Origin: Candidatus Altimarinota bacterium
GTDB lineage: Bacteria; Patescibacteriota; Gracilibacteria; UBA1369
Direction: 5' to 3'
DNA: 64,000 nucleotides
Assembly (NCBI GenBank): GCA_041738505.1
Contig: JBGSPQ010000010.1
Span: 5,553-69,552 of the forward strand
Made by a program: the position numbers and the translations under genes
In this document: positions 17,759 to 63,137 of the stretch, piece by piece
Position numbering within the stretch: position 1 is the first letter of the stretch
Layout: every line of letters starts with the position of its first letter
Notes under the pieces: generated by a model
Database searches by the model: none
Seen by the model: the letters and a program-made list of their open reading frames with translations, nothing else
What the model was told of the DNA's origin: nothing

Positions 17759-18460
17759 TCAAATTCCGTTAACTTCACTTTTAAGAACAAGGTCGTTGCC
17801 TTCTTCCGTGACCATATATAAACAACCGCTCGGTTGAATGAATATTTGTGATTTGCCTCCGGTCGCCAGATAGGCCGCAATGGTGCCCGACCCACAAGCT
17901 GTTTCATTAATTATCGACTTCGTTTTTCTCACAAATACTGTGATATTCAATTTGTAATTATTATCCATGGAAATCAGCCCGACAGAGGGGAAACGCTCAA
18001 TATCTTTCCCGTATGTCCTTAGATAATTTTTTAAAGTTTCAGTCTGATCTACTTGATCCTTCGCATTTCTCACGAAGTGGGCAATACCATCCATCTTTAC
18101 AAGGGTGGAGCCGTCTCTTAACTTAACCGGCAAAAAATCATTTCTGATATTTATGGAAACCCAGTAAGCAAGTTCACATGGATAAACTCCGTTCAGGCAT
18201 TCCACATCTGTTTTACGTGAACCGGTCTCTCCATAATTCCAAAGTGCCAGACTTCGGATGGCATTAACACAAAGTTCGTTACCCATCATAGTCAGTTTAA
18301 TATCGCTTTCTTTTGATTTTTCAATAAAACCGACCTGCTCAACATCATCGGATAACTGGGATTTGCCAATCTTATGATATTCGGCAGGTTGAATAATATT
18401 CGCTCTATTATCTATCAATAAAGTTGGATTGCCCCCCGGAACAAAAATACTTTTTTTCAT
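17759..18460 (-). CDS. DapF-superfamily (DAP-epimerase fold) two-cysteine racemase/epimerase, CntK-like
   Basis: 233 aa with GGNPTLLI near the N-terminus. MGNELCVNA and ETACGSGT place one Cys in each half, as in PLP-independent racemases. EQVGFIE resembles what I recall of the histidine racemase CntK. Confidence 0.55.
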   Translation of the reverse strand: MKKSIFVPGGNPTLLIDNRANIIQPAEYHKIGKSQLSDDVEQVGFIEKSKESDIKLTMMGNELCVNAIRSLALWNYGETGSRKTDVECLNGVYPCELAYWVSINIRNDFLPVKLRDGSTLVKMDGIAHFVRNAKDQVDQTETLKNYLRTYGKDIERFPSVGLISMDNNYKLNITVFVRKTKSIINETACGSGTIAAYLATGGKSQIFIQPSGCLYMVTEEGNDLVLKSEVNGI

Positions 18461-18462
18461 TG

Positions 18463-19407
18463 TTAAAGTTGTTTAATGAATGATTGAAGTGTGTCAAAAC
18501 CGCTCTTGAGAGATGCAAAATCTTTTTCACCAAAACATTTGCGTCTTTCAATAATCGTATAGTCTTTGCTGTCGGAAAGAGCTGTGAGCAGATAGAGAAA
18601 ATCCTTAAACAATTCCGGACTCACCTTTTCCAGAAAAGTTTTCACGTCGGGTTCATCTATACCGCTTTCAATCACCGGTTCCCCAAAGCATTTGAAATAA
18701 GGGGGACGGTTGCCGATTTTTCCAAACAGCTGGATCCTGTCATAAGTTTTTTGAATGTCTCCACGGCTTGCACCGATGATTTTACGGACATTAAAGAAAA
18801 TCTCCTCTGCCGGTCCGCCCACCATCGCCAGCGCATCAAGATCAAAATCCGGAGGATTATCAATCAAAAATAAATTCTCATCATCCGTCACGGGTTCACG
18901 CATAAAAAGAGCGTGTTCCGCCATATATGCCAGAGGATTGCGAATTGTCTGCCCTTCCTTAATTCTCTTTTCCGCGAATGTTATAATTGCTCGATTATTT
19001 TCTTGGATGAGGGTATCAACAAGTTCCTGAACAAGTTGCCGGCGTTCCGCGGAATCTTCTCTTTCCCTGGAAATCAGGACGTCACCTTCGGTCTTGGCAT
19101 AGAAAGCCTTTATGAATTGACGGATATATTCCGAAACCAGCTGAACGTTATCCTCAATTATTGCCGGATCTTCACCCAACCTCATTTGCGCCCTATCGGC
19201 GAAGTAAAACTGGCCGCGCGTATTTTCGCGACTTTGCATCGCAGACAAAAGTGGCATCAAATAAGCCAGAATGCGTACGGGAACGCCCGGAGTGACATCC
19301 GCGCTCATCCCTGTGGAAAACAGGACCCTTTTTTTCGGATTCATACTTTTTAACAGTTTTTCACTGGTATTTTTTAGTAACGGGAATATGGGGGTATTTT
19401 TAGACAT
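18463..19407 (-). CDS. Hypothetical protein (314 aa), first gene of the operon with the racemase
   Basis: ATG start. Its stop lies 2 nt from the downstream gene's start codon. No confidently recognisable motif. Confidence 0.6.
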   Translation of the reverse strand: MSKNTPIFPLLKNTSEKLLKSMNPKKRVLFSTGMSADVTPGVPVRILAYLMPLLSAMQSRENTRGQFYFADRAQMRLGEDPAIIEDNVQLVSEYIRQFIKAFYAKTEGDVLISREREDSAERRQLVQELVDTLIQENNRAIITFAEKRIKEGQTIRNPLAYMAEHALFMREPVTDDENLFLIDNPPDFDLDALAMVGGPAEEIFFNVRKIIGASRGDIQKTYDRIQLFGKIGNRPPYFKCFGEPVIESGIDEPDVKTFLEKVSPELFKDFLYLLTALSDSKDYTIIERRKCFGEKDFASLKSGFDTLQSFIKQL

Positions 19408-19492: not shown

Positions 19493-19564
19493 TTACATGC
19501 AGCGATGCACCGACAAATGATGGTCGGTGTGATGATGCTGGCTGGATGTAAGTAATTGATACAT
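19493..19564 (-). CDS. Candidate 23-codon His-rich leader peptide MYQLLTSSQHHHTDHHLSVHRCM
   Basis: The ATG at 19564 is about 25 nt downstream of a consensus -10. Six of the 23 codons are His. The codons overlap the 5' arm of the first leader hairpin. Confidence 0.45.
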   Translation of the reverse strand: MYQLLTSSQHHHTDHHLSVHRCM

Positions 19565-19589
19565 TAAAATAGATTGAAATCCTGAGTGT

Positions 19590-19617
19590 ATTATACCCAA
19601 CAAAAAACTTATGTCAA
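19590..19617 (-). promoter_or_regulatory. Consensus sigma70 promoter TTGACA-16-TATAAT
   Basis: The minus strand has TTGACA (19617-19612) and TATAAT (19595-19590), between tRNA-Phe and the leader. Confidence 0.65.
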
Positions 19618-19626
19618 ATTTTAATC

Positions 19627-19701
19627 TGGTGCCGAGGGGCGGAATTGAACCACCGACGCAGGGATTTTCAATCCCTCGCTCTACCACTGAGCTACCCCGG
19701 C
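19627..19701 (-). tRNA. tRNA-Phe (anticodon GAA), CCA encoded
   Basis: The reverse complement GCCGGGGTAGCTCAGTGGTAGAGCGAGGGATTGAAAATCCCTGCGTCGGTGGTTCAATTCCGCCCCTCGGCACCA folds as a cloverleaf. The anticodon loop is TTGAAAA. Confidence 0.92.
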
Positions 19702-19799
19702 AAACTATTTTCACGGTCTGAAGACAGCACAAAAAAACTTACCTTAATCCGCCTCAAATTTCAATTGAATAATATAATAAAAAAAATCATACAATGGTC

Positions 19800-19828
19800 T
19801 TGACTTACTAAAAACTATTTGCTACAAT
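19800..19828 (+). promoter_or_regulatory. Near-consensus promoter TTGACT-17-(TGc)TACAAT facing the ORF-free region
   Basis: TTGACT 19800-19805 and TACAAT 19823-19828, preceded by TGc (extended -10). Confidence 0.6.
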
Positions 19829-19889
19829 ACTATGATGATTCAAAAAAGGAACGAATTATCCCGACCATTGAAAACCAGACCGTACCGGC

Positions 19890-19982
19890 AAGATAGGGAG
19901 AAAGCTGCCAGAAACCATTGATATTGCGGACCTTTAAAAAGTCTTCGTATCCATATTTTCTGTCAGCTTCCTCCCTAAGCTT
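19890..19982 (+). repeat. Hairpin module A: AAGATAGGGAGAAAGCTG - 56 nt - CAGCTTCCTCCCTAAGCTT
   Basis: The 5' box (19890-19907) is complementary to the 3' box (19964-19982) apart from small internal loops. Confidence 0.7.
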
Positions 19983-20296
19983 TCGGGATTGGAATAATAA
20001 TTGATATCCCCCAGATATTAATTACTACTTAAATCTTGTTTCTGACGGGCTTGTATATCAGGAATAAAAGTTTAAGGCAAAGACGAGTGTTTCTTTTTAA
20101 GTGATTTCATTTTATCGCGGCCTGTGCTTCGATATTTTAAATCTCTTAAATCAAAACGCTTCTGAAAGACTGTTCACTTTAACTTCGGTTATTGCGAATA
20201 TAATTCTACAATAAATTGTAATCTTGCATTTTGTTGGTCTTTCCTTCCAGTCCCCACTTAGGGTTTTGTACTTTGATTTTTAGGTCCTCACAGCGG

Positions 20297-20377
20297 AAGA
20301 TAGGGAGAAAGCTGTTAATGGCATATATGTTGACCCACCTCTTCATATAGTTCATTGGCAGCTTCCTCTCTAAGCTT
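20297..20377 (+). repeat. Hairpin module B: AAGATAGGGAGAAAGCTG - 44 nt - CAGCTTCCTCTCTAAGCTT
   Basis: The 5' box is identical to module A. The 3' box differs at one position (C to T, which still pairs with G). The loop is unrelated to loop A. Confidence 0.7.
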
Positions 20378-20688
20378 CTTGGCTTGGTGAGTATTCCGTG
20401 TTCAAGAGTCCCCCAGGTTCTTGACGCGCCTTTCTTTTTCGCTTAGTGGGTTCGCAGGCTAAGCTGTAGAGAGTTTGGGATTAACTTCGTTTGTCGTCTG
20501 TGATGTTTTGTTTATCGGCTTCGGTCGATTTTCAAACGTTACAAATCGGTAAGCGAGAGAGATTCTGTCCTGTATCAGTGATGATTCAGGCTAAGAGACT
20601 GTTCCGGAGAAATAATCTTTTTTTGGGACGTTGACCGTTTACTTTTCTTTCCCTGGAGTTTGGGGAGGACTTGAAAAATTATAAGGAA

Positions 20689-20775
20689 CCCGGTGAGAGT
20701 GCTGTCTTCTGTCTGAGTTTGGTCACTAGTTTTGACCCTCAGTCATCAAGACAGCTCTCTCATCGGGTTTTTTTT
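20689..20775 (+). terminator. Long intrinsic terminator (20-nt arms, nested inner hairpin, T8)
   Basis: CCCGGTGAGAGTGCTGTCTT (20689-20708) pairs with AAGACAGCTCTCTCATCGGG (20748-20767) with one G-U and one mismatch. An inner GGTCA/TGACC hairpin is nested inside. TTTTTTTT runs 20768-20775. Confidence 0.6.
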
Positions 20776-20789
20776 GAACCCCGTAACCG

Positions 20790-21308
20790 TTATTTGCCGC
20801 AAACATCCCAGAGACCTTTCGTTTCATCTTTGGCCACTTCCTGCAGTGTTTCAAAGGAGTCGTGTTTGGAGTAAGCGTGGTCTTCATCAAAATAAACTCT
20901 CGCCAGACCCTCTTTAATCAATTCTTCATTAAGCATTCTGCCGTCCGCCAGATAAACATACTTTAGATCCCTCCCGTGGATATCTTTTTCCCCCGCGTCC
21001 GGATCGCTTTCCAGAGTGACTTCGCGGTTATTCTTAAAAAACAGGTTGGCTGCCAGATCTTTAGATTCCCCGCCAAAGCACTGGCGAACTTTTTCGCCGT
21101 CCAGGAAAGTGGTTTCCGGAGCGTCCGCGCCAATCAGCTGAACCTTGGAAAGCTTCCCGTTTTGCATCACGATGTAGGAATCGGGATCGATCATGTGCAC
21201 AATCTTGGCTTTATTCTGAAAGAAAAACGGCCAAAGCACATACTGATAAAGCAGGAATATCACCAGCGCCAGTATCGCGAGACTGATTAAGGGACGGAGA
21301 ATTCTCAT
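20790..21308 (-). CDS. Membrane-anchored staphylococcal-nuclease-like (thermonuclease/SNase) protein
   Basis: N-terminal TM segment. VQLIGADAPE...GGESKDLAANL...HGRDLKYVYLADGRMLNEELIKEGLARVY matches the SNase active-site blocks. Confidence 0.75.
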   Translation of the reverse strand: MRILRPLISLAILALVIFLLYQYVLWPFFFQNKAKIVHMIDPDSYIVMQNGKLSKVQLIGADAPETTFLDGEKVRQCFGGESKDLAANLFFKNNREVTLESDPDAGEKDIHGRDLKYVYLADGRMLNEELIKEGLARVYFDEDHAYSKHDSFETLQEVAKDETKGLWDVCGK

Positions 21309-56390: not shown

Positions 56391-59300
56391 TTGGATAGGG
56401 ATCTGATGATGCAGGGTAAACATTCTGTGCATCTTTTGAATTTTAAGAAAAAAAGAATTGAAGTCGCCGAAAGAATGTCTGCCGAAGTCAGAAAGTACGG
56501 AAGACAAGCGATCGACCTTGAATATGAGCTTGCCGGATTGGATACGTGTCATTCTTTTCAAAGCGAGGAGATTAAAGAGAGTTGTCTGATTTTGCAGAAT
56601 TATTGTCAGGCGATAATGGACAAAATCAGTGCGGTATCGGGACTAAAAAATGTGAAACCAAAAATATATTTGACCAGGTCGATGACAGCCAATGCCTTTG
56701 TATGGGCAGAGCATGGGGAGGAAGGAATAAAGGATTTATTGGAATTGGCACGGGCGGGCAAAGAGGTTGAATTACCGGTTTTTGTTCATGCGGGGCTGGT
56801 GCAGTCATTAAGATATGATGATGAGTTGGCCGGAATTTTTGCGCATGAATTGACACATTTAATGCAGCCCGCATATAACAGGCAAAATTCGGATCAGGAA
56901 AAACAGAGGTTGGAATATGATGCGGATAAAAACGCTCTTCATCTTACCGATGCCGCCGGCTTTAACCCCCGCGGGTTATTATCATGTTTTGAATCCCACA
57001 ATAATCGGGATATTGTTTCAAGCCTCGGTATGTCTTCGCATCCCGCAACCGAATCAAGAATCACCGAGCTGGAAAAGGAATATCATCGCAAGGATCTGCC
57101 ATTGATTAACAGTGGTAAAAGCATGAAACATTTGCCGGAGAATATGTCAGAGGCCGTTAATGCGCTTGAAAAAGCTCAATCGTTAAAAACAAACGATATT
57201 GATTTATCAGAATTGGAAAGAAAAGAAAAATTGGATGAATATTTGGAGCAAAATTCGGGTGCGGATTTGTATTTCAGAAAAGGGTTTAATGGTTCAATTC
57301 ATTCAATAGCTAACAGCAGATTAATAGAGGAGGCGATTCATCAGGAACTGGTGCATGGAACATTGGGACATCGGGCGAGAATGTTAAATGCCTTGAGCTG
57401 TTTTTTAGCCGGTTTACAGCTAAAAGCGGTAAATACCGATCCCGATGTGCGTTACGATTTTGAAAATCCTAAAAGTTACCGGAGTGATATTGGTGCGGTT
57501 CCCGATCTTGATGAATATTTTAATGCTCCAAAAGAGGAGAAATATATCAGTGATTCGGACAATCTTAAAAATTATGAGTTAAACGGAGCCGTTGAAACAT
57601 TCACAAACCTGGAAGAGGAAATGAAGGCACTGGGTTTGGAAACGGAAATTGGCAAATTTCCCAAAACCATTGAAGAGTGGATAAACATGGACAATGAATA
57701 TACCGACCTTTTTTGGAAGCTGTATGATGAAAATGGAGTTCACGACAAGAAGCAACGGTTAAACATCTTAATGGGTGTAATGAGGGTTTATATGACAATG
57801 CCATCGGTCGAAAAGGTCTGCAAAATCGAAAAGGTGACCCGGTATGTGATTAAAAGAAAAGAACCTATCGAACCAAAACCGGAGGGGGTGCTGCAAATGC
57901 TCCCTGAAAGGTTGCGCACGCAAAAAAGAAAAAACGATTTGGAAATTGAGTACGAGGACGTTGAAGTGAAGAAAGAAAAGAAGGAGTCATTATTCAGCTC
58001 ATACGCGAGCGGATTGAATTTACCTCATGGCATGAGAAAAATAGATTATATGGATCAGGCTCCGCTGATAAGGGGTCTGGCCAGGACTCTGCATGATAAA
58101 TCCATTGATGCATATCGGGAAATTTTGACTCTGGACGGTGTGGGGCAGGTTGATCCCAAAGTGTTGGAATTCATTTTGCTCAATTTTTATAACAATTCTA
58201 ACGGAGTCAGTTCAAATCAAGGAGTATTACTGGATGGGTTGGACAATCCAACAATTACGTTTTTGGATCAGGTGGTGAGGGTTTTGGAGTCAAAAAACCT
58301 ATGCAGGAGTTTTTCGGATCCCATAATAGGTAATTTCGGTATTCAGAATTCGCATGCACAGGCATACATTATGGTGATAGCATTCGGGTTGAAACCAAAA
58401 AATGAGCAAGAAAAGGAAATTAGAGAAAACTATCTGAAAAGAGTGATGGTTGATCCTTTTTTAGGCGGCAACAGGGGGGAGACACCCACCTATATATTGT
58501 ATCTTAAGACTGACGATCGGATGCTTGAGCATTTTGATGAGGAGTTTGTTCAAGCTGAACCATGGAGAGGGGATAACTATGATTTGAGTATTATTAATTT
58601 GAGAAGTGTAGCTCCAAGTGTTAGCGCTCATTGGATAATCAATAAAGAGCGGTTTTTGGCAGAAATGCAAAGCGTTTTAAATGGTGGGGAAAGCGGTGCG
58701 GGACTGGAAATCAAAGAAGATGTACGTAAGAAAATAAAAACAAAGATATTAAGAGCGGTTGAGAAAAAACCCCTGCTTAATAGAATGGTAAGTAAAGCCG
58801 ATGACAAAAAAGAACGTGAAATGTTAATTGATGATTTAATGGGTTTATCGGCATTAATGGGAAGGTATGTGGATAAAACCTATGAAGATGTATTGCCAAA
58901 TCATGATTCGGTTAAGGCTATGTTTAAAAAGGAACAGCAATGGTATTCATCTGTTGGGAGCAATCCCGGTCCCGACATTGTAAGGTTTATGGTGAAGGAG
59001 ATCGCAAAAGTTTTTGATGTTTCAACTCTTCGAAAGCATGTTAGGGCTACGGACAAGGATCAATCGGATGAAGATTTGCTCTTCTCCGTATTCGCAAAAA
59101 TGACCTCGGTGGATGATAGGTTGGAAAGGTATCAGGAAGTTACATATTTAAGCAATGAGGCTCATGGGAATGTCGCCCTGGATGAGTTTGTTTATGAATA
59201 TGGTGGTTGGAAAGCATCATACGAACGTTATGATGTTGACGATTTGAAAGGGGCGAGATACCTTTTATATAGAAAAAAAGATTTACCTACGGGTTCCGAA

Positions 59301-62300
59301 GCCGGTATAGACGAAGAGACCCTTTATAAATGGTTGGAAGCATTGGCCGTGACCCGTCCCAAAGCCGCCGAGCTGCTTAAATATCTGAAACGTGATGATG
59401 TAATAATCTATTCTGATGTGATGCGTTTTTGTATGGGCAGTTTTATCGGGTTTAAGAAACTGGGTGAATCACTGGATTTGAAATACAGTGAGGTAAAGAA
59501 AAGAAAAAATGAGATTCGCAAAGGTATAAAAATTGCGCGCCTTTGCGGTGCAATTTATCATGACAAGTGGAAAAATATTGAAGGTTTTAAGCGGATGGAT
59601 GAGCAACTAAGTAACTGGGAGTGGGTTTATGATAATCCGTTTTTTGGGGAAGTTACACCTGATAAAAAAGAGGGCGGCAGTAAAGATAACAAAGCATTTA
59701 TTTATTCCCTTTTAGAAAAGCATGGATCAGCATTGGGGAAATATTATCGATGTGAAACCGGGCATGGGATCGAGTTCTCCTGGCCGCTTCTGATGATTGA
59801 TCTTTGGAATGGTGATTTGGATTTGAAGTTTATTGAAGATGATCAGGAACGGGAAAATGTAAAAAAGATGTTGGATATTGTTTTAGAGAAGATGAAAGAA
59901 ATAGTTGCGGATAAATCCAATCTTGCAGTTGTCATAGCGATGCAGCCGGGGTTTTTCAGGGAATTCATTATAAAAGAAAAGATGAAATTGATTGGCGTGA
60001 AAGATACAGTGGAAGAATTACATGAATGGATGCCTCAATTTTCATCTTTGGCGCATGAGGCCAGTGAAAACAATCAGATTTCGAGTCAGGTGGAAAATGT
60101 GCGGCGGGAAATTGTTAAAAAGAGAAAGGAGGCACTGATTGCGGAGGCCATTGAGTATGTATTGCCGGACACCGTCAGTGATGAAGTAAAAGGCGCAATA
60201 ATTGCATCAACCGGCCGATTAAATAAAATGATGGTCGAAATGGATTGCGATATACATGTTGCTAATAAAAAAGAGCTGAGGGATAAAAACGGCGACATGA
60301 CTGAAGTTGGCAAGACTGCAATCGAGATATCGGAGCGGTACAGGGATGCAATTTTGGAACGATACAAATTGCTGATGGAAATGGAGGTTCAACAGATGTC
60401 AGAGGAGGATTCCGTGGATGAAGAGGATGTATATTTGTTTTCTGATCATGTTATTGAAAATGATAAAAGCAGGTTGGAAGTGGGGCCGGTGTATAGATTC
60501 CAGATTGGAGCACAGCCTTTGATGGATTGGCATGTCAATAAACTTCGAGCGGCCGGCTCGGTTGGTGAAATGAGGGATTGTGCAAAAAAAGTTGATGAAT
60601 TTTTTCCCGATAGACACCCGCTAAAAGACATTTACCTGAAAAATCAGTTAAATCTTGAGCTGTGGCGGATCTTGAGTGATGAAATTGGTGAGATGCAGTT
60701 GGCGGAAATGGGCATAGCTTTAACGGAAAAGAAAATTGATTTAGATAAAGATTTGTCTCATTTTCCCTTATATAAGAATGTAGTGTTTTTAAAACATTAT
60801 TCCGTCTTTAAATTGGAGGGTTTACTTGATAAGTTCCAAAATTTACCGGCAACCACGGTTTCCGGCATCATGGGGAGACTTGCTTATTACATTGAAGAAA
60901 AAGTAAGCGAGGCCTCAAAGCCGGGCATGAGAAGACTGCTGTTTTTGATGGAAGAAAAAGCCGTATGGCCGTCAATTTTAAGTAGAAGAGATAGTGATCC
61001 GGAGATTTTTGAAAAATATTTGAGTCACATTGAAAGGTTTTTCCCCAATCCCTCTTTGGAAAAAGATAATCTGCTGGAAACAATTATGATGGATTTGGCC
61101 TTGAATCAGGCAGAGGTGAACAAAGCCCTCAACTTAAGGTATGCGGAGCAGGTTTTATTGCCGGAACAGAAGGAATCTTTAGCATTAAAAGCACAATATC
61201 AAGCTTTTGAAAAAATAAGGTTCTATGTTTCGAATATGGATCGAATTGAGAGGGCTGAATTTGTACTGTGGCTTATGGGGGGAGAGCCGCCCCTGGCCAA
61301 CACTCTTTCAATTAAGAGCACAGGTATTTCTTTGGATGGAAGAAAAGAGGTTTTCTGGCAAATGACACCCAATGAAAGAAGAAATTTGTTATATGAGATT
61401 TTGCAGGACAATAATGGTTTGTTCAGGGAATATTCTTCCTATGGTTATGGAACCCCCGAGCCCAGGCCCTTTCCGATGGAGGTGAAAAATGACAGCATGA
61501 TGAGATATCTAGTTGAGGAAATTTTTGAGATCACGTTTAAGGGTCTCTTAATAAATGAAAAATTACCTGCCGATCATGAAGAGAATATAAAGGGGCGGGA
61601 TATTTTAAAAACAATATTTGAAGGACTATTTATTCATCAGCAAGATCCCGTTCGCAGGACGGAGTTGTTACTGAATATTATTGAAGCGATTGGGACAGCC
61701 AGAAAAAAAGGCGAGAAGCTGGGAACACCGGAATTAATCAGGTTGATGGCCGAGCAGGGGGGTGTTGTTATTGTTAAATTTTCACAGGTTTTATCCGAAC
61801 AGCCGGACTTATTGCCGGCATCCATCAAGGAAGCATTAAGTGATTTGAAAGATAGTGCGACCGTTGTATCAAAGAGGTCCGATTATGCATATTTACAGGC
61901 GACGGGATGGTTAAGGGATAATGTGGATGGCATAGCCGAAGTTGGTAAGAGCATAGGAAGCGCGTCAATTAAACAGTGTAGAAAAGGTGTTTTGAAAAGC
62001 GGTCAGCCGGTTGCCATAAAAACCAAGAAACCGAGTATAGAGAAATATTATAAGGAGGATTTACAGGTGGTTGGGAAAATACTTTCTTCTTTGGAAGAGA
62101 AATATGAAATTCCTTCTTATTTAATTACAGAGGTTGAAAAGGTGATCCATGAGGAACTGGATTTTGGACGCGAGGTTGATAATCATTTGGCGCTTCGGGA
62201 ATCCTTGATAGAAAGAAAAACGGCTATGTCGGTGGAAGTCGCTAACCGGGACTATTCTTTTCCGATTGAAGTGGTCGCGCCGGTTGCAATTTATCCAAAC

Positions 62301-63137
62301 TCTTCGGCAAATGATGCCGGGGTCGGTTTAATGGTGGAGGAATTTGCCCGCGGACTATCCTTAAATGAAATTCAGAAATTTCAGAAGGCCGTTCGAGAAA
62401 ACAATATTGAAGTGTTGCAAAAAATCAGAAAGAGAATTTATGAAGTATATCCGCAGCAGGCACAGGAAATTGAGGATAAAATCAAGAAATTGGATCTGGA
62501 ACATTTTCAATCCGGAATGGCTTTGGAATTACTTAAACAAATAATGAAGGGTGGAGTTTTTCACGCCGATCTTCATGCCGGGAATATATTTCTTGATTTA
62601 TTGCCCTGTTCAAGAGACGGGGAAATCCATCAGGGAAAAGTTGTTCTTATTGATTTGGGTAGCATGGGGTATTCGAACTATGAAAAAATGCCAAAGGCGG
62701 TACGGCAAGATGTGGAAGAAGGATTTGATGTTAGAGAGGAATTCAAAGATTTTTTGAGTGCTCTTTTTTCACAAAGCGGGCATACGGATAAAATTGCGGA
62801 AATTATCAACAAGTTTACAGGTCTGAAATGGACTGATAAATCCGTTTCGGCATTGATCGGTAAAGGTTTGTCGACTCAACAGAAGGTAAAAAAGATATTT
62901 TATGAGATTTTGAAAGATTGCAAGGATTCAAACGCAGAAATTGATATGCAGTTTAGATATTTTTTGAAAGCGATAGCTACTTCGGCTGATCATTTGGATA
63001 ATTTGAAGAATAAGTTGATGCAGGAAATGATGTACATGATGTCTCAAGGTGGGCAGATCTCCAATGAAGAGAGGGACAAGATGTTTTATACGATTTTACA
63101 GAATGAGCGGTTGTTAAACTTTGGATTAATATTTTAG
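56391..63137 (+). CDS. Giant (about 2243-2248 aa) multidomain protein: N-terminal M48-type zinc metalloprotease, long helical middle, C-terminal UbiB/ABC1-type atypical protein-kinase-like domain
   Basis: The ORF starts at TTG 56391; the first ATG is 56406. IFAHELTHLMQP (HExxH codons at 56844-56858), LEYDADKNALHLTDAAGFNP and SSHPATESRI make the M48 pattern. GVVIVKFSQVLSEQPDLLP, VAIKTKKPS, EELDFGREVDN, GVFHADLHAGNIFLD and VLIDLGSMG make the UbiB/ABC1 pattern (~61720-62800). No TM segment or signal peptide is seen. Confidence 0.8.
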   Translation: MDRDLMMQGKHSVHLLNFKKKRIEVAERMSAEVRKYGRQAIDLEYELAGLDTCHSFQSEEIKESCLILQNYCQAIMDKISAVSGLKNVKPKIYLTRSMTANAFVWAEHGEEGIKDLLELARAGKEVELPVFVHAGLVQSLRYDDELAGIFAHELTHLMQPAYNRQNSDQEKQRLEYDADKNALHLTDAAGFNPRGLLSCFESHNNRDIVSSLGMSSHPATESRITELEKEYHRKDLPLINSGKSMKHLPENMSEAVNALEKAQSLKTNDIDLSELERKEKLDEYLEQNSGADLYFRKGFNGSIHSIANSRLIEEAIHQELVHGTLGHRARMLNALSCFLAGLQLKAVNTDPDVRYDFENPKSYRSDIGAVPDLDEYFNAPKEEKYISDSDNLKNYELNGAVETFTNLEEEMKALGLETEIGKFPKTIEEWINMDNEYTDLFWKLYDENGVHDKKQRLNILMGVMRVYMTMPSVEKVCKIEKVTRYVIKRKEPIEPKPEGVLQMLPERLRTQKRKNDLEIEYEDVEVKKEKKESLFSSYASGLNLPHGMRKIDYMDQAPLIRGLARTLHDKSIDAYREILTLDGVGQVDPKVLEFILLNFYNNSNGVSSNQGVLLDGLDNPTITFLDQVVRVLESKNLCRSFSDPIIGNFGIQNSHAQAYIMVIAFGLKPKNEQEKEIRENYLKRVMVDPFLGGNRGETPTYILYLKTDDRMLEHFDEEFVQAEPWRGDNYDLSIINLRSVAPSVSAHWIINKERFLAEMQSVLNGGESGAGLEIKEDVRKKIKTKILRAVEKKPLLNRMVSKADDKKEREMLIDDLMGLSALMGRYVDKTYEDVLPNHDSVKAMFKKEQQWYSSVGSNPGPDIVRFMVKEIAKVFDVSTLRKHVRATDKDQSDEDLLFSVFAKMTSVDDRLERYQEVTYLSNEAHGNVALDEFVYEYGGWKASYERYDVDDLKGARYLLYRKKDLPTGSEAGIDEETLYKWLEALAVTRPKAAELLKYLKRDDVIIYSDVMRFCMGSFIGFKKLGESLDLKYSEVKKRKNEIRKGIKIARLCGAIYHDKWKNIEGFKRMDEQLSNWEWVYDNPFFGEVTPDKKEGGSKDNKAFIYSLLEKHGSALGKYYRCETGHGIEFSWPLLMIDLWNGDLDLKFIEDDQERENVKKMLDIVLEKMKEIVADKSNLAVVIAMQPGFFREFIIKEKMKLIGVKDTVEELHEWMPQFSSLAHEASENNQISSQVENVRREIVKKRKEALIAEAIEYVLPDTVSDEVKGAIIASTGRLNKMMVEMDCDIHVANKKELRDKNGDMTEVGKTAIEISERYRDAILERYKLLMEMEVQQMSEEDSVDEEDVYLFSDHVIENDKSRLEVGPVYRFQIGAQPLMDWHVNKLRAAGSVGEMRDCAKKVDEFFPDRHPLKDIYLKNQLNLELWRILSDEIGEMQLAEMGIALTEKKIDLDKDLSHFPLYKNVVFLKHYSVFKLEGLLDKFQNLPATTVSGIMGRLAYYIEEKVSEASKPGMRRLLFLMEEKAVWPSILSRRDSDPEIFEKYLSHIERFFPNPSLEKDNLLETIMMDLALNQAEVNKALNLRYAEQVLLPEQKESLALKAQYQAFEKIRFYVSNMDRIERAEFVLWLMGGEPPLANTLSIKSTGISLDGRKEVFWQMTPNERRNLLYEILQDNNGLFREYSSYGYGTPEPRPFPMEVKNDSMMRYLVEEIFEITFKGLLINEKLPADHEENIKGRDILKTIFEGLFIHQQDPVRRTELLLNIIEAIGTARKKGEKLGTPELIRLMAEQGGVVIVKFSQVLSEQPDLLPASIKEALSDLKDSATVVSKRSDYAYLQATGWLRDNVDGIAEVGKSIGSASIKQCRKGVLKSGQPVAIKTKKPSIEKYYKEDLQVVGKILSSLEEKYEIPSYLITEVEKVIHEELDFGREVDNHLALRESLIERKTAMSVEVANRDYSFPIEVVAPVAIYPNSSANDAGVGLMVEEFARGLSLNEIQKFQKAVRENNIEVLQKIRKRIYEVYPQQAQEIEDKIKKLDLEHFQSGMALELLKQIMKGGVFHADLHAGNIFLDLLPCSRDGEIHQGKVVLIDLGSMGYSNYEKMPKAVRQDVEEGFDVREEFKDFLSALFSQSGHTDKIAEIINKFTGLKWTDKSVSALIGKGLSTQQKVKKIFYEILKDCKDSNAEIDMQFRYFLKAIATSADHLDNLKNKLMQEMMYMMSQGGQISNEERDKMFYTILQNERLLNFGLIF

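Follow-up and report, generated by a model that had tools for sequence, protein, structure and literature searches.

A predicted large structured RNA gene with tandem units beside tRNA-Phe in Peribacteria-type bacteria

The Locus

The stretch of DNA considered here (the window, to which all coordinates refer) spans 64,000 nt of contig JBGSPQ010000010.1 from a Candidatus Altimarinota bacterium. On its + strand lies a predicted non-coding transcript of about 940 nt (19835-20775) with full-length homology in relatives, and this segment is very probably the gene of a structured, trans-acting RNA of a new family. The RNA is placed between two genes of the opposite strand: tRNA-Phe (GAA; 19627-19701, called by ARAGORN and Rfam), from which it diverges, and a membrane-anchored nuclease of the SNase family (20790-21308; Pfam PF00565, E = 2.6e-19), with which it converges. 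Among the fetched homologous loci (denoted L001, L002 and so on), tRNA-Phe adjoins the RNA in all 13 with a called tRNA; in L005 a run of N (an assembly gap) splits the tRNA-Phe gene, so that ARAGORN calls no tRNA there. The longest open reading frame (ORF) wholly within 19702-20789 has 49 aa. Two mechanically called ORFs, of 67 and 61 aa and unconserved, begin in the terminator region (20671 and 20732) and extend outward in antisense to the nuclease gene. The RNA unit holds six ATG triplets on the + strand (19832, 19835, 20318, 20327, 20503, and 20581), as counted in an earlier account of this DNA, hereafter the preliminary description. That account had proposed an ORF-free non-coding RNA (ncRNA) unit beside tRNA-Phe, running from promoter to terminator on the + strand, and synteny, covariation, strand asymmetry, absence of coding and a conserved promoter all bear it out.

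The 5′ boundary is marked by a sigma-70-type promoter (19800-19828), already noted as near-consensus and extended −10 and recovered by a promoter scan. It reads TTGACT-17-TGcTACAAT, the −35 (TTGACT, 19800-19805) and −10 (TACAAT, 19823-19828) elements giving 10 of 12 consensus matches in addition to the TG extension (19820-19821). Transcription is predicted to start near 19835. A motif of the form TTGAC(A/T)-N14-15-TGnTAnnAT stands upstream of the first module, a hairpin described below, in 15 of 16 lineages. L002 has the RNA promoter twice in tandem: TTGACA...TGATAyACT occurs at positions 95 and 179 of its oriented gap, a spacing of 84 nt. The 3′ boundary is a terminator (20687-20775) consisting of an 83-nt hairpin (20687-20769) with a nested GGUCA/UGACC hairpin, and U8 (20768-20775). 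Its arms (20687-20708 and 20748-20769) are 91% complementary and 22 nt long, rather than the 20 nt given before. The hairpin is conserved, and double changes occur in 18 of the 30 pairs of its main helix.

Homologues, Synteny and Conservation

A search with the exact nuclease protein returned one near-identical contig, and nuclease homologues led to contigs of related organisms. A scan for the module pattern in one genome per species added two metagenome-assembled genomes (“uncultured Candidatus Peribacteria bacterium” and “Candidatus Gracilibacteria bacterium”), and a similar scan of metagenomes gave six further divergent loci together with one chance match (L017), an unrelated palindrome that was discarded. 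RNA homologues occur in about 15 Peribacteria-type lineages of the candidate phyla radiation (CPR), in the order SNase gene, RNA, tRNA-Phe, and every fetched relative has a gene-free gap of 1.2-1.6 kb between the SNase and tRNA-Phe genes. Identity of the gap to the window (blastn) is 95% in L002, 90% in L005, 87% in L023 and about 76% over about 900 nt in L006-L011. By tblastn, the SNase gene stands beside the RNA in 20 fetched loci at protein identities of 100% down to 33%, and synteny is kept even where this identity is merely 33-47% (L013, L018, L019, L020, and L021). The 3′ half of the RNA exceeds the nuclease gene in nucleotide identity in nine of nine comparisons (e.g., 97.8/87.5, 93.1/77.6, and 67.4/53.3%; in L006, 80.5% for the RNA and 65.0% for the gene).

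Viral contigs (0 module matches), phage records and plasmids hold no match to the RNA or the module, and 24 matches to a 15-mer are attributable to chance. With the covariance model R1, the 64 kb window yields modules at this locus alone, and 16 other loci yield them in the syntenic gap alone. A mobile repeat, such as a miniature inverted-repeat transposable element (MITE), was rejected on the same search, which finds no dispersed copies in the window or in those loci. The RNA family is so far confined to Peribacteria-type CPR bacteria.

Covariation, Strand and Coding

Folded with RNAalifold, 14 sequences that cover the 3′ half from module B through the terminator yield 141 pairs, which were set against column shuffles (n = 500) and against partner sliding. 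The cells of these pairs are paired in 95.9% of cases, compared with 87.4% in shuffled and 36-50% in slid controls. Compensatory double changes affect 69 of the 141 pairs; shuffling gives 32.8 (0 of 500 reach 69) and sliding 11-23. Covarying pairs are found in every helix of the 3′ half except one, and module A and the two hairpins that follow it likewise covary in the 5′ units (RNAalifold). These results support base pairs kept by compensatory substitution beyond what relatedness provides, the pattern by which a structured ncRNA is recognized. The signal also has a direction. Read on the − strand, the same pairs are standard in 81.5% of cells as against 95.9% on the + strand, with 304 G.U cells. 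The minimum free energy is −324.5 kcal/mol (z = −10.0) on the + strand and −258.8 kcal/mol (z = −7.0) on the − strand, i.e., the + strand fold is 66 kcal/mol more stable, and the module covariance model scores about 86 bits on the + strand vs. about 43 bits on the other. Pairing, energy, and model scores thus argue that the RNA is not a 3′ untranslated region (UTR) of the nuclease gene.

Signs of coding are lacking. Variable columns are spread over the three positions modulo 3 as 113/112/116, without codon periodicity, and among ORFs of at least 20 aa none is shared across lineages; only stretches of 11-21 aa recur, arising from conserved nucleotides. An alternative genetic code was rejected: if UGA is taken as sense, the longest run without a stop grows from 78 to 114 codons, yet the neighboring genes are intact in table 11, and the stops of the 45 window genes (TAA 24, TAG 12, TGA 9) indicate the standard code. 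Shine-Dalgarno (SD) motifs are rare in the window, a GGAG-type motif at −20 to −4 preceding only one of 45 gene starts (1034-63137), and leaders are A/T-rich. Conserved small ORFs, or a lack of any homologous region in relatives, had been named in the preliminary description as evidence that would speak against an RNA; neither was encountered.

Comparison with Rfam 15 (4227 families; cmscan of the whole window at gathering scores) returned only three tRNAs. With permissive filters at E<=10, positions 19500-21000 gave the tRNA and chance matches to microRNA and small nucleolar RNA hairpins, and nine homologous loci gave tRNAs only. GOLLD, ROOL, OLE, HEARO, raiA, RNase P, tmRNA, 6S, SRP, T-box, and introns are therefore without an Rfam match in the window and in the nine homologues. 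The preliminary description had been unable to place the RNA by eye and had called for a search with the GOLLD, ROOL, HEARO, OLE, and raiA models; none of these families matched. Its suggested link to GOLLD or ROOL found no Rfam match even at E<=10. A T-box riboswitch was considered separately and rejected, as there is no match to RF00230 at E<=10, no downstream + strand gene, and the UGGU after module B becomes UUAGU in L006, L007, L010, and L015; pairing of the T-box UGGN type with the acceptor of tRNA-Phe is likewise unconserved. The literature searched contains no description of such an RNA, and neither there nor in Rfam is a class of large structured ncRNAs recorded for this part of the tree.

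The Module

The recurring element is an 80-95-nt hairpin in which a near-invariant 5′ box (AAGAUAGGGAGAAAGCUG) and 3′ box (CAGCUUCCUCCCUAAGCUU) form the duplex of the basal stem, interrupted by an A.C mismatch that is conserved and by a 1x2 internal loop. In module A, a long irregular hairpin (19890-19982; R1 86.6 bits), the 5′ box at 19890-19907 pairs with the 3′ box at 19964-19982. Module B (20297-20377; R1 84.1 bits) comprises a 5′ box (20297-20314), the apical loop UUGACCCACCUCUU (20330-20343) and a 3′ box (20359-20377). The two 5′ boxes are an identical 18-nt sequence, AAGATAGGGAGAAAGCTG, 407 nt apart; with up to 3 mismatches it occurs twice in the window, where 0.03 occurrences are expected by chance. 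The 19-nt 3′ boxes (CAGCTTCCTCCCTAAGCTT in A, CAGCTTCCTCTCTAAGCTT in B) differ by a single C-to-U change in module B, which converts a G-C pair into G-U, as previously described; the relatives L002 and L005 retain C. The spacing and the complementary boxes of the two modules agree with the preliminary description, whereas its coordinates for the 18-nt box were one base too high. Its statement that the enclosed loops are unrelated has to be withdrawn: the apical parts of A and B align, are partly paralogous, and have UUG...CUYUCRUAU in common.

The box stem itself covaries. Across a table of 37 modules with 15 distinct box pairs, U-A, C-G, and U.G alternate at 17:2, A-U and G-C at 13:6, G-C, G.U, and A-U at 8:11, and A-U and G-C at 6:13. 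The A.C mismatch is retained in 12 of the 15 distinct box versions and moved by one pair in the other three. In module A of L021, the change from GAUAGGGAG to GGUGGAGAG is accompanied by CUCCCUA to CUCUCCA, giving two compensatory changes. A K-turn or UAA/GAN identity of the internal loop was discarded, the sequence being unfit (by inspection only). The CCUAAG of the module A 3′ box (19975-19980) equals what is presumably one strand of the 11-nt GAAA tetraloop receptor, probably by coincidence. The module B counterpart is UCUAAG (20370-20375); AUAGG on the opposite strand mismatches UAUGG, and the tetraloops of the RNA are not consistently GAAA. A UUGG-CCAG pseudoknot beside the modules is plausible in unit A, but in unit B UUGG becomes UUAG in L006, L007, L010, and L015, and this candidate was also set aside.

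Tandem Units, Copy Number and Terminator

Judged by its sequence, the RNA consists of paralogous units arranged in tandem, and the same order is followed in each: a YUUGAAAA linker, the module, two small hairpins, a variable body, and a distal purine box. The YUUGAAAA-type linker precedes each module (as leader motif CAUUGAAAAC at 19866-19875, and again at 20270-20281) and recurs past the last distal box (20670-20678). In unit A, the first hairpin (19999-20023) has a covarying stem and a nearly invariant loop, CCCCCAG (20008-20014), and the second (20039-20064) carries the loop CGGGCUUGUAUA (20046-20057) on a stem with 3-6 double changes per pair. The variable body (20065-20256) contains small hairpins, including AAC-UUCG-GUU (20181-20190), whose UUCG tetraloop is replaced by GCAA and GAAA in L006, L007, and L010 on an unchanged stem. 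The unit ends in the distal box CUUAGGG (20257-20263), which is complementary to the module A 3′ box.

Unit B follows the same order. Its first hairpin (20397-20428) has 13 pairs, 100% paired and six of them with double changes, and a loop (GUCCCCCAGGU, 20408-20418) that is the same in 14 of 14 sequences. The hairpin P5 follows (20430-20473; loop UGGGUUCGCA), which includes AAGCUGUAGAGAG at 20461-20473 and shows double changes in 8 of 13 pairs. The preliminary description had proposed AAGCTGTAGAGAG (20461-20473) as an alternative partner of the module B 3′ box; the segment belongs instead to this covarying local helix, and pairing with the 3′ box becomes thermodynamically feasible for it only through the C-to-U change peculiar to the window. 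The multi-helix 3′ body (20476-20656; helices 6-12) contains 53 pairs, 29 with double changes and every helix represented. Within it lies the UUCG-capped hairpin at 20514-20529, exactly as first described. The distal box of unit B (AGUUUGGGGAGGA, 20657-20669) is complementary over 13 nt to the 3′ box of module B, for which it would be a partner alternative to the 5′ box.

Contacts between loops may add to this architecture. The loops of the second hairpins open with CGGG or UGGG, and in L016 and L021 a change of CCCCC to CCGCC in the hairpin 1 loop occurs together with CGGGC to CGGCA in the hairpin 2 loop; from these sequences, the two loops probably kiss. In the window and in L012, GACCCAC in the module B apical loop UUGACCCACCUCUU is complementary over 7 pairs to GUGGGUU in the P5 loop (20447-20456). 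L016 and L021 have a different module B loop, and GCGGG in P5.

The number of units varies. There are two per RNA in the window and its close relatives, three in L006-L011 and one in L013, whose RNA of about 215 nt comprises just a leader, a single module, and the terminator. A second, divergent first module is present in L014 and L018. The terminator itself is a further, degenerate copy of the module: R1 matches in the window comprise the two modules and the terminator hairpin (20687-20770; 21.5 bits, E = 0.004), and the L018 terminator scores 43.3 bits and still reads GGGAGAGAGCUG...CAGCUCCCUCCC, the score and the retained boxes together marking it as a diverged module.

Alternative Pairing of the 3′ Box

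In the last unit, the distal box forms 11-13 contiguous pairs with the 3′ box in 12 of 12 lineages, a run that 0 of 200 shuffles reach in 11 lineages and 1 of 200 reaches in L018. RNAalifold selects this helix, which is 98.8% paired and in which 7 of 12 pairs never vary. In A units, the distal box gives 7-11 contiguous pairs at the same relative place in each. In L016 and L021, the 3′ box changes from UAAG to UAGG and the distal box matches it by changing from CUUAGGG to CCUGGGG; in these lineages compensatory changes are present in both alternatives, 5′ box with 3′ box and 3′ box with distal box. For most homologues, constrained folding separates the two states by about 0.4-7 kcal/mol. Without constraints, the optimum employs the distal box in three homologues; in the fold of the isolated 3′ half of the window, neither purine box is paired with the 3′ box. 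Two purine boxes competing for one pyrimidine box at near-equal stability suggest a two-state switch in each unit.

Neighboring Genes and Other Features

Just downstream of tRNA-Phe, a promoter with 12 of 12 consensus matches (TTGACA-16-TATAAT; 19590-19617, − strand) faces a 314-aa gene (18463-19407). In the window (17759-19407) and in L001, this gene, which has no Pfam match, and a 233-aa gene lie between tRNA-Phe and a TMEM43-family gene. Both are missing in L005-L009, where the TMEM43-family gene comes directly after the tRNA, and L010 has no TMEM43-family gene at the position beyond the tRNA. The difference looks like an insertion or deletion beside the tRNA. The 10-mer TGATGATTCA occurs at 19833-19842, the predicted 5′ end of the RNA, and at 20579-20588 in the 3′ body, and is related to a repeat whose other copy is 19529-19543. 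Elsewhere in the window there is an ORF of 2248 aa (56391-63137, + strand).

Proposed Function and Alternative Explanations

The best overall explanation is probably that of a gene for a stable ncRNA of a new family, acting as RNA. Its working as a multivalent docking platform with a switch in each unit is put forward tentatively, as one possibility. The RNA would be transcribed on the + strand from the strong extended −10 promoter and ended by the intrinsic terminator (20687-20775). The terminator faces a convergent gene, hence the RNA is not a leader, and its own conserved promoter and the + strand signatures argue against a 3′ UTR of the nuclease; the transcript ends and an action in trans are what we infer. 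Leader motif, module, and terminator module are conserved everywhere, including the minimal L013. The basal stem, invariant in sequence and pairing and with a specific mismatch and internal loop, has the look of a sequence-specific docking site, and may be the place where a partner docks, a protein being likelier than an RNA. The variable copy number favors an additive, multivalent role over one fixed catalytic fold, and several module copies would make the RNA a multivalent platform or sponge. Within a unit, the 5′ box and the distal box would compete for the 3′ box, giving two near-isoenergetic states that each expose one purine box. We infer the partner and the switch as well.

Several points weigh against this proposal. 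The approximately 15 lineages are related, and counts of covarying cells therefore overstate the number of independent events, although the slid-partner control argues that relatedness is not the whole explanation of the covariation. In the last unit, the five varying pairs of the helix between distal and 3′ box change only on the distal side and stay paired; the sole true compensatory change between these boxes comes from one pair of lineages, L016 and L021. The distal box of unit A in the window gives 7 bp only, which is not significant alone (43 of 200 shuffles reach it), and nearest-neighbor energies are too imprecise to prove bistability. Nothing in the neighborhood points to a partner, and the transcript ends and abundance are predictions. 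Furthermore, an invariant helix would equally be expected if the role were catalytic or purely architectural.

An architectural role is the substance of one alternative, in which the RNA resembles the ornate RNAs ROOL, GOLLD, and OLE and forms a large RNA assembly (for instance homo-oligomers through kissing loops or box swapping) rather than docking a protein. ROOL, GOLLD, and OLE are reported to form RNA-only homo-oligomers (PMC12286853). The large and very stable fold (z = −10) beside a tRNA gene, the invariant hairpin loops with candidate loop-loop contacts, and 5′, 3′, and distal boxes that could pair between molecules as easily as within one are all in keeping with such an assembly, but a range of one to three units, with L013 reduced to one module and the terminator, is hard to fit to one fixed three-dimensional architecture. 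Moreover, no conserved self-complementary loop is seen, no Rfam model matches, and there is no phage or prophage context, so that this explanation is unlikely. Comparably unlikely, and compatible with the docking proposal, is a precursor from which cleavage at the YUUGAAAA linkers would release single-unit RNAs of about 300-480 nt, the helix of 3′ box and distal box closing each one, with the number of units acting as gene dosage. Every unit is indeed self-contained (module, two hairpins, body, and closing distal box), A/U-rich single-stranded linkers are conserved between units, and copy number varies; the bodies of units A and B, however, differ greatly and the units are not equivalent copies. 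A more far-reaching conjecture, which seems somewhat less likely again, makes the RNA the first large “ornate” CPR-specific class, a bistable multivalent machine that would toggle between the hairpin of 5′ and 3′ box and the closure of 3′ and distal box, exposing GGGAG/GGAGG that docks the 16S 3′ tail, in ribosomes with rare SD use and frequent lack of bS21, or links molecules into RNA-only assemblies. Ribosome binding can also be considered without such a machine: the purine boxes (GGGAG, GGGGAGGA) would mimic SD sequences, CCUCCC and the loop GACCCACCUC of module B would imitate the 3′ tail of 16S rRNA, and the RNA would bind 30S subunits or factors that recognize the tail. The boxes have GGAG/GGAGG and CCUCC cores, the apical loop GACCCACCUC(C) of module B is invariant in 11 of 14 aligned sequences, and it resembles what we take to be the 3′ tail of 16S rRNA, GAUCACCUCC. 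The low number of SD motifs in the window (1 of 45 genes) and the frequent absence of bS21 in Peregrinibacteria (PMC9297842) can be counted for it too. Nevertheless, GGAGG and CCTCC are no commoner in the RNA than elsewhere in the window, the elements resembling SD and anti-SD sequences pair mutually, which explains the composition without a ribosome, the CACCUCC loop is wholly missing in L016 and L021, and no conserved start codon or ORF follows any box; a role in translation is accordingly improbable.

Explanations other than a trans-acting RNA fare worse. As a cis element, the region would serve as a leader or riboswitch, as an extended 3′ UTR of the nuclease gene, or as its antisense regulator, and the SD-like and anti-SD-like hairpins do resemble the sequestering helices of translational riboswitches. 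The RNA also always adjoins the nuclease gene, and the terminator hairpin would be common to the RNA and the nuclease mRNA. Against this stand the absence of a downstream + strand gene, a terminator that faces the end of a convergent gene, the RNA's own conserved promoter, the + strand preference of pairing, energy, and model scores, and an overlap with the nuclease transcript that is limited to the terminator, which leave a cis role very improbable. An mRNA for one or more small proteins, such as a hok-like type I toxin under fold-back control, is just as improbable and already largely refuted. The three-element alternative pairing recalls hok mRNA, in most lineages module B has GGGAG 10 nt ahead of an AUG or GUG, and translation from there would give short hydrophobic peptides (10-46 aa); but the frame through the invariant 3′ box varies (ASSLSF in L006 and L012, SFLPKL in L015 and L023), stops at codon 11 in the window and has no start codon in L016 and L021, and across groups neither a conserved ORF nor 3-nt periodicity is found. 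Least probable of all, and also largely refuted, is a feature acting at the level of DNA, such as a decayed gene, a MITE-like repeat, or protein-binding iterons. Inverted repeats with a repeated 18-mer near a tRNA gene, a common integration site, might suggest it. However, the module keeps a fixed syntenic position across deep divergence and occurs nowhere else in the window, the 304 G.U cells would become A.C mismatches if the pairing were in DNA or on the other strand, and the region, which has no match among phages, plasmids, or viral contigs, is conserved above the neighboring gene.

About 1 kb of non-coding DNA kept above the conservation of a neighboring gene, in gene-packed CPR genomes of about 1 Mb and among lineages with protein identity down to 33-47%, points to an important RNA function. 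Duplication of an RNA domain is directly visible here, as one, two, or three units and as a module reused for the terminator, and the candidate switch is defined in sequence and ready as a test case. Entry of the family into RNA libraries would keep CPR annotation from reading the gap as empty.

Comparison with Known Systems

ROOL and GOLLD (presumably RF03087 and RF01998 in Rfam) are likewise structured RNAs of several hundred to about 1000 nt, without an ORF or an assigned function and beside a tRNA gene. Unlike them, the present RNA lies on the chromosome in strict synteny rather than in phage DNA, gives no match to a covariance model even when the filters are permissive, consists of 1-3 tandem paralogous units, and is restricted to Peribacteria-type CPR bacteria. 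OLE and the raiA motif RNA share with it a narrow, lineage-restricted range, strong conservation of sequence and structure, their own promoter and terminator, and a function that is not obvious from context. OLE RNA has genes for oap partner proteins alongside; here no conserved partner-protein genes adjoin the RNA, no model matches, and the design is one of repeated units. The sponges CsrB, RsmY, and RsmZ also carry variable copies of a conserved binding motif per transcript, and their GGA purine boxes resemble SD sequences. In contrast to these, what is conserved here is not GGA in hairpin loops but an extended duplex that contains a mismatch and an internal loop, the units measure 300-480 nt instead of 20-30 nt, and the GGA boxes are mostly helical. 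Three-element switches (hok tac/ucb/dcb/fbi, riboswitch expression platforms, and translational T-boxes) have the same combination of one pyrimidine box with two purine partners and two states of similar stability; in the present case, the switch is a proposed one and controls no ORF or downstream gene. The family is therefore new, while its kind, a lineage-restricted large structured ncRNA beside a tRNA gene, has precedents. What sets it apart is the tandem-unit design, the terminator derived from the module, and the CPR host.

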